Positions 56,265-56,765 of a stretch of DNA of 64,000 nt are shown piece after piece. The position numbers and the translations under genes are program-made. The DNA comes from Sphaerodactylus townsendi (Eukaryota): NCBI RefSeq assembly GCF_021028975.2, contig NC_059425.1, positions 170,996,001-171,060,000 of the forward strand. The letters are read 5' to 3'. Under the pieces are notes generated by a model. That model was not told the origin of the DNA, made no database searches, and worked only from the letters and a program-made list of their open reading frames with translations. Numbering within the stretch: the stretch's first letter is position 1; every line of letters starts with the position of its first letter.

Positions 56265-56765
56265 TAATCACAATTCTTAAATGCCCCAGCTGGGGTCTAT
56301 GGAGGCGTGGGCAATTCTTAAATGCCCCTCCCGGGCATCCAGTTGAAGTCTCAAAGAACAAGCCGGGATATGTGCTGTCATGCCCACTGGCTGAAATCAA
56401 AGTCAGTATTGCAATCTAGAACGTATCTCAAAGTTATTGTTGAAATAGCTTCTTCCAAATTGTATAGAATGAAATAAACATCTTATCAAAGGCTCACGAT
56501 TTTCGATATAATTTCAAGCCGCTATTGTGGCTTGAAATTATATAAAAACTCGTGAGCCTTTGATAAGACCTTTATTTCTTTCTATAAAATTTGGAAGAAG
56601 CTATTTCAACAATAACTTTGAGATACGTTCTGGATTACAATAGTTTGATTTCAGCTAGTGGGCGTGATAGCATATATCCCGGCTTGTTCTTCGAGACTTC
56701 AACTGGATGTCCGGGAGGTGCTAATGCCTCCAAAGACCCCGGCTGGGGCATAAAGAATTATGTTA
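56265..56765. repeat. About 500-bp imperfect palindrome (fold-back) with a 4-nt loop
   Basis: Arms pair outward from centre aagccgc-tatt-gtggctt (56516-56533) to aattct...gccccagc / gctggggc...agaatt. Confidence 0.95.

Follow-up and report, generated by a model that had tools for sequence, protein, structure and literature searches.

The closest described systems are the endonuclease-positive Penelope-like retrotransposons. In the parts of the literature cited here, their insertions consist of 5'-truncated copies with an adjacent inverted copy and carry a tail of 30-40 bp at one end (PMC8557442); both the tail and the target-site duplication are optional in this class (PMC8557442, PMC3846280). 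Palindromes at the inverted junction have been described, and are read as products of self-priming in the relevant part of PMC3846280. In vitro, both strands were cleaved and extended, and two start sites of reverse transcription (RT) bound the tail, according to the cited portion of PMC11167929. Elements of the Neptune clade have a CX2-5CxxC linker before the GIY-YIG domain, and Nematis has the same linker (PMC8557442, same part). Minimal hammerheads, including a variant with a U3 core, are treated in a section of PMC4209133.

In the window, that is, the whole analysed stretch of 64,000 nucleotides of Sphaerodactylus townsendi, a long spacer-less palindrome is, with a probability of about 0.92, the head-to-head junction of two truncated 3'-end copies of an endonuclease-bearing Penelope-like (Neptune-like) element, likely formed in one insertion and likely decaying neutrally since. 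The locus belongs to a Penelope-like family, its orientation is defined, its tail is at one end, and the family habitually inserts as direct plus inverted pieces with target duplications. The layout, an insertion with an inverted copy, is already published for this class: the cited parts of PMC8557442 and PMC3846280 describe the same head-to-head truncated copies, one-end tail and junction palindrome. Also alike are the 9-17-bp duplications of the family and the C-terminal position of GIY-YIG after the RT. Compared with the published insertions covered by these parts, however, the arms in the window are of great length (about 240 bp in the paired part, 580 bp in the long arm) and derive from about 1 kb of 3' region; moreover, the window copy has neither a target duplication nor a tail-less end, and two lineages are mixed in its left arm. 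With the Neptune clade, as characterized in the source above, the related loci L013 and L089 share a CxxCxxC linker upstream of the endonuclease. The two RT start sites and the cleavage and extension of both strands in Poseidon of Anolis carolinensis (PAc) fit the two types of ends in the window's family. However, PAc represents a different clade, and the joining of inverted copies lies outside the tests of that paper, as far as its cited part goes (PMC11167929).

One arm, 56269-56522, pairs with the other, 56527-56762, around a TATT loop (56523-56526), where the two truncated copies meet. Nested inverted arms of 114, 78 and 33 nt surround 56524. The 236 aligned columns contain 24 substitutions, a difference of 10.2%. 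The longest perfect block, given as 43 bp in the earlier note, is present and measures 44 bp (56418-56461 against 56588-56631). The left-arm duplication reported there as 16 nt is likewise present but of another size: a 13-nt insertion at 56314-56326 (plus strand) duplicates part of 56271-56287 and completes a 17-nt direct repeat of that segment. It occurs also in L003 and is missing from the right arm; the second indel is a 4-nt deletion in the right arm. There are 15 transitions (10 G-U and 5 A-C on the plus strand) and nine transversions. The former estimate of about nine G-U against five A-C was thus close, but the bias read from it is not significant (binomial p 0.30); decay of CpG, already proposed as part of the pattern, accounts for several transitions on both sides.

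The RNA of a 631-nt stretch has a predicted minimum free energy of -387 kcal/mol on the plus strand (z -42) and -366 on the minus strand (z -32), and none of 20 shuffles folded as stably. With its 236 paired columns and 4-nt loop, the fold-back of about 500 bp is real, as had been claimed. No Rfam model scored above its cut-off on the palindrome. Matches of microRNA models to the hairpin centre, obtained in the search of 54000-60000, reached 36 bits against cut-offs of 74-83 and were rejected as matches of shape only.

On the sequence evidence, the palindrome is part of a dispersed repeat and not a stand-alone element. The interval 56265-56765, formerly taken for the whole object, is too narrow: the left arm forms the inner portion of a repeat piece of 580 bp (55947-56527), whose remainder runs on unpaired as far as 55947. 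This direct, long arm (minus strand) is the 5'-truncated 3' end of the Neptune-like element, with 86% identity to L012 and 69% to L013. A tail of about 35 nt at 55947-55981 (minus strand) is optional in the family, other copies ending either there or at about 55982, and in the window it is present only at the end of the long arm. The right arm is an inverted copy of the 5' half of the 580-bp piece. This short arm, 56527-56762 (plus strand), is a second copy of the same region with markers of the L012/L021 type, and it lacks the last 290 nt or so that lead to the usual tail-less end.

Nor is the palindrome unique in its genome, where about 19 candidate places yielded at least 42 matches to it, almost all the length of one arm. 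The extension to 55947 had at least 38 matches, and the next stretch of the family at least 17. Thirty-six loci, mapped on two natural copies, have a fixed end on the 55947-55982 side and a variable end on the other. Pieces in both orientations occur in 21 of the 36 including the window, or in 20 of 35 without it, and at least 10 two-armed copies besides the window carry the 30-40-nt tail at one end only, the other end being shorter. At 12 or more of 22 other loci the insertion is flanked by direct repeats of 9-17 bp that scored above every one of 60 null positions; this is a lower bound, as the ends were set by hand and those of L066, L028 and L013 are probably misplaced. Spacer-less fold-backs were observed in L054, with a 4-nt loop and a 16-bp duplication, and in L052, with a 9-nt loop. 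Across the family, the distance of the fold-back point from the end ranges from about 50 to about 710 nt, with no clustering at one site. L005 (1743-2008) and L011 (1687-1768) contain 5' pieces inverted internally, with short overlaps, at junctions resembling those of twin priming; the inverted piece of L005 ends in a short tail fragment.

The class of the parent element follows from longer relatives. L013 continues upstream into a 208-codon frame that matches GIY-YIG (PF01541, E 1.1e-5, above the cut-off) and ends at 975; about 1 kb of non-coding sequence then leads to the tail, and the last 500 bp are 69-78% similar to the arms. L089 contains an RT frame (RVT_1, weak, E 0.003, below the cut-off; a YIDD motif is seen), and an endonuclease 65-73% identical to that of L013, and it has a 5' copy in inverted orientation as well as a duplication of 14 bp. 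L091 and L092 likewise join the endonuclease to an arm-like 3' region. Because the longer copies lead into RT/GIY-YIG frames, the sense of the element on the long arm is the window's minus strand, and the centre of the palindrome is the meeting of 5'-truncated copies. The linker upstream of the endonuclease in L013 and L089 (CGRCLQC) points to Neptune or Nematis, both of which would fit it equally. Judged by its relatives, then, the parent is an endonuclease-bearing Penelope-like retrotransposon, Neptune-like, with the reservation that the coding copies are only 69-78% similar to the arms and that the RT and GIY-YIG frames are found in related copies and not in the window copy itself.

Related endonuclease frames are abundant in the genome (150 were scored of 2869 candidates). 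Among the 10 best endonuclease matches, a coding copy of the arms' own young subfamily was not found, and only in L013 do the surroundings match an arm. Open frames of 756-792 codons with a related endonuclease were seen in L104 (G000:C8:64305272), at G000:C2:79423311 and at C2:93647463; these are possibly intact Neptune-like elements of other subfamilies. Visual inspection of L005, L008, L013 and L089 showed, immediately 5' of the arms, a motif resembling a minimal hammerhead with a U3 core. Its folds are not significant, Rfam found no hammerhead in four family loci, and the motif is absent from the window copy.

The two arms of the window copy differ in descent. From 55991 to 56273 the left arm has the state of L012b/L021 at all 17 informative substitutions and at the site of a 19-nt deletion. 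The lineage switches at 56275-56279, and from 56279 to 56326 the left arm has the state of L003 at five of five informative events, the right arm there retaining the L012b/L021 state. The L003-type tract extends inward to at least 56404. Over 56279-56404 its markers are A56279, A56299, G56309, G56310, the 13-nt insertion, G56372 (common with L003) and the lack of the 4-bp deletion, an event common to the right arm and L012a. L003 itself lies 10 Mb away on the same contig and, flanked by a 14-bp duplication of its own, represents an independent insertion. Divergence is 5.1% between the right arm and L011, 7.9% between the left arm and L005, and 8.3% between the left arm and L003, all below the 10.2% between the two arms. 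For other two-armed copies the corresponding divergence between arms is 3.6-7.2%, with private variants common to both arms in L008, L012 and L054, and in three of five such copies the arms are each other's closest relatives. In the window they are not, and because of this an origin from one template in one step needs a later event. In a tree of 12 arm sequences the left arm groups with L003 (88/86) and the right arm with L011 (82/76); because neither fork is strongly supported, the lineage calls rest on shared indels. The arm differences look like neutral decay plus lineage markers, and with some other copies closer to an arm than the arms are to each other, we see no sign of kept pairing.

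Public contigs of four organisms, A-D, were compared with the locus. The palindrome centre is bridged by short-read contigs in one run (X1, 136 nt, no differences), possibly the source run of the assembly. The right junction is bridged in X1, X3 and X5 and the left one in X3, X5 and X6; by organism, contigs of B and C show both junctions, those of D the left one and those of A the right one. Where the contigs of X5, X7 and X8 leave gaps over the palindrome, this was not counted as absence. In organism D, three runs match the unique flank only from 56776, preceded by about 248 other letters. A contig of single-copy depth joins the equivalent of 56296 to 56590 in two of these three runs, a junction found at none of the 36 mapped loci, and in X7 a contig of right-arm type runs on beyond 56759. 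If the D contigs, which are candidates only, represent the orthologous locus, then D lost the centre of the palindrome.

Target duplications, a feature of the family, were not detected at the window copy, where the best score was equalled by 12 of 60 null positions. A degenerate duplication picked by eye at 56763-56782 was rejected on the same count, and a scan of 56700-62000 for 14-mers from the left flank found none with at least 11 matches. The right junction contains a filler at 56760-56775, of which 56760-56768 is an inverted copy of 56779-56787. Inverted-copy filler of this kind is known from templated deletion scars, and the segment is likely the scar of a later deletion. Such a deletion in the A-C lineage would have removed the right end of the insertion; the alternative is an insertion in D.

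We propose the following history. The enzyme would nick both strands of the target, and RT would be primed from both nicks, from the start that includes the tail on one strand and from the tail-less start on the other. The two cDNAs would stop within 5 nt of each other and then be joined, giving a palindrome with no spacer. A later deletion may have taken, together with some flank, the distal portion of the right arm and the target duplication belonging to it. The left-arm tract from about 56279 inward would have been replaced by, or copied from, a member of the L003 type. Snap-back self-priming on the 4-nt loop is an alternative for the window copy. However, in L053 and L064 the tail-bearing arm is the shorter one, and because these copies cannot derive from snap-back of a longer tail-less arm, priming from both nicks at two start sites followed by joining of cDNAs is favoured.

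For the mosaic itself, later ectopic gene conversion has slightly better than even chances, and a template switch at birth is about half as probable; homoplasy or a reverse history takes the rest. The contigs of D, L012-type at 56279, lean towards conversion. That the two arms derive from two RNA molecules through template switching in double-primed RT or, failing that, that a break triggered by the palindrome was repaired from the copy 10 Mb away, we consider a tentative reading.

The most serious rival to the proposed history places two RNA templates at the birth of the insertion: the long cDNA would have switched from an L012-type to an L003-type template near 56279, the short arm would have been primed internally on the first RNA, and 56762 would be an original junction. 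The left arm indeed changes its marker state at 56275-56279, within 10 nt of the site that matches the end of the right arm, and internally inverted 5' pieces are known from L005 and L011. Yet a target duplication is missing at 56762, organism D has different unique sequence before 56776, and L003 has a deletion of its own beside the switch that would also halt a conversion tract there. In addition, the locus-like single-copy-depth contigs from two runs of D (candidate orthologues) have a left arm of L012 type through 56296 and a right arm continuing beyond 56759; if they are orthologous, the mosaic would postdate the insertion. We regard this rival as possible, and clearly less probable than an origin from one insertion with later changes.

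The other rivals take the palindrome for a different kind of object. A putative FGL1-like gene with a fibrinogen domain occupies 46384-55093 on the minus strand; four of its exons match Fibrinogen_C, and its putative signal-peptide exon starts at 55093, which places the palindrome 1.2 kb upstream of the presumed translation start. This position, the very stable fold predicted for any transcript and the presence of both junctions among organisms A, B and C might suggest that the fossil was co-opted as a source of hairpin RNA or endo-siRNA, or as a regulator of the gene. However, junction sharing needs no selection, because the relatives are only a few percent apart, and the right junction is different in D. 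The G-U excess of 10:5 is not significant and is reversed on the gene's strand, nine transversions and two indels break pairs, and the arms, parts of a dispersed repeat with neutral-looking differences, are no more similar than unrelated copies. The hairpin-RNA reading of the earlier note thus finds no support at the sequence level, and co-option seems improbable. An undescribed fold-back transposon, also suggested there, was right as to a transposon-derived fold-back and wrong as to an undescribed DNA transposon, as this is a by-product of the described Penelope-like class. Several copies are indeed flanked by inverted repeats of 80-330 bp and target duplications, as a non-autonomous element with long terminal inverted repeats (fold-back, Mutator-like) or a MITE would be. 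But neither the length nor the junction of the inverted parts is fixed, the ends differ by the 30-40-nt tail, the duplications vary from 9 to 17 bp, and the longer copies lead into RT/GIY-YIG frames and not into a transposase, which makes a DNA transposon very unlikely. Least likely of all is an endogenised viral terminal hairpin or an assembly artefact, for which only the shape speaks. Against a viral hairpin stands the nature of the arms, a dispersed repeat of the host that is joined to a Penelope-type frame. Against an artefact, a chimeric fold-back read would not be expected to give arms that differ by 10% and have indels of their own, and both outer junctions are spanned by contigs among three organisms, the centre by contigs of one run.

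Several other features were observed nearby. A young high-copy repeat (2262 candidates, copies 98-99% identical) lies at 55620-55876, between the gene and the Penelope copy. At 57197-58190 there is what looks by eye like the 3' fragment of a LINE, with high depth, an end resembling poly-A and a 146-codon frame that has no Pfam match. It is interrupted by a second palindrome, 57786-58012, whose 82-nt arms are 99% complementary around a rearranged centre of 45 nt. This palindrome matches, at 78%, sequence downstream of a different GIY-YIG-like frame in L089 and is probably a fold-back of another Penelope family. A 50-nt fragment of U5 snRNA at 58923-58972 on the minus strand (Rfam, 54.7 bits, above the cut-off, model positions 14-63 of 117) is probably a truncated pseudogene. 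At larger distances, a 468-codon stop-to-stop frame on the plus strand at 42990-44396 had no match in Pfam, and about 12 self-inverted elements of 100-190 bp at 12854-42599 are either MITE-like or additional stubs of Penelope elements.

A long palindrome with no spacer near a vertebrate gene can be nothing more than a by-product of a Penelope-like element. The structure itself is ordinary, and the wider value of this palindrome is mechanistic only, the mosaic arm being its one oddity. The formation of inverted Penelope copies is unsettled between self-priming, as proposed in the cited part of PMC3846280, and the priming on both strands observed in vitro in that of PMC11167929. Lineage markers in long arms could serve to distinguish one RNA from two, and to follow the later erosion of a palindrome. 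An insertion made from two RNAs, if true, would testify directly, at the level of the genome, to the way in which inverted Penelope copies arise.
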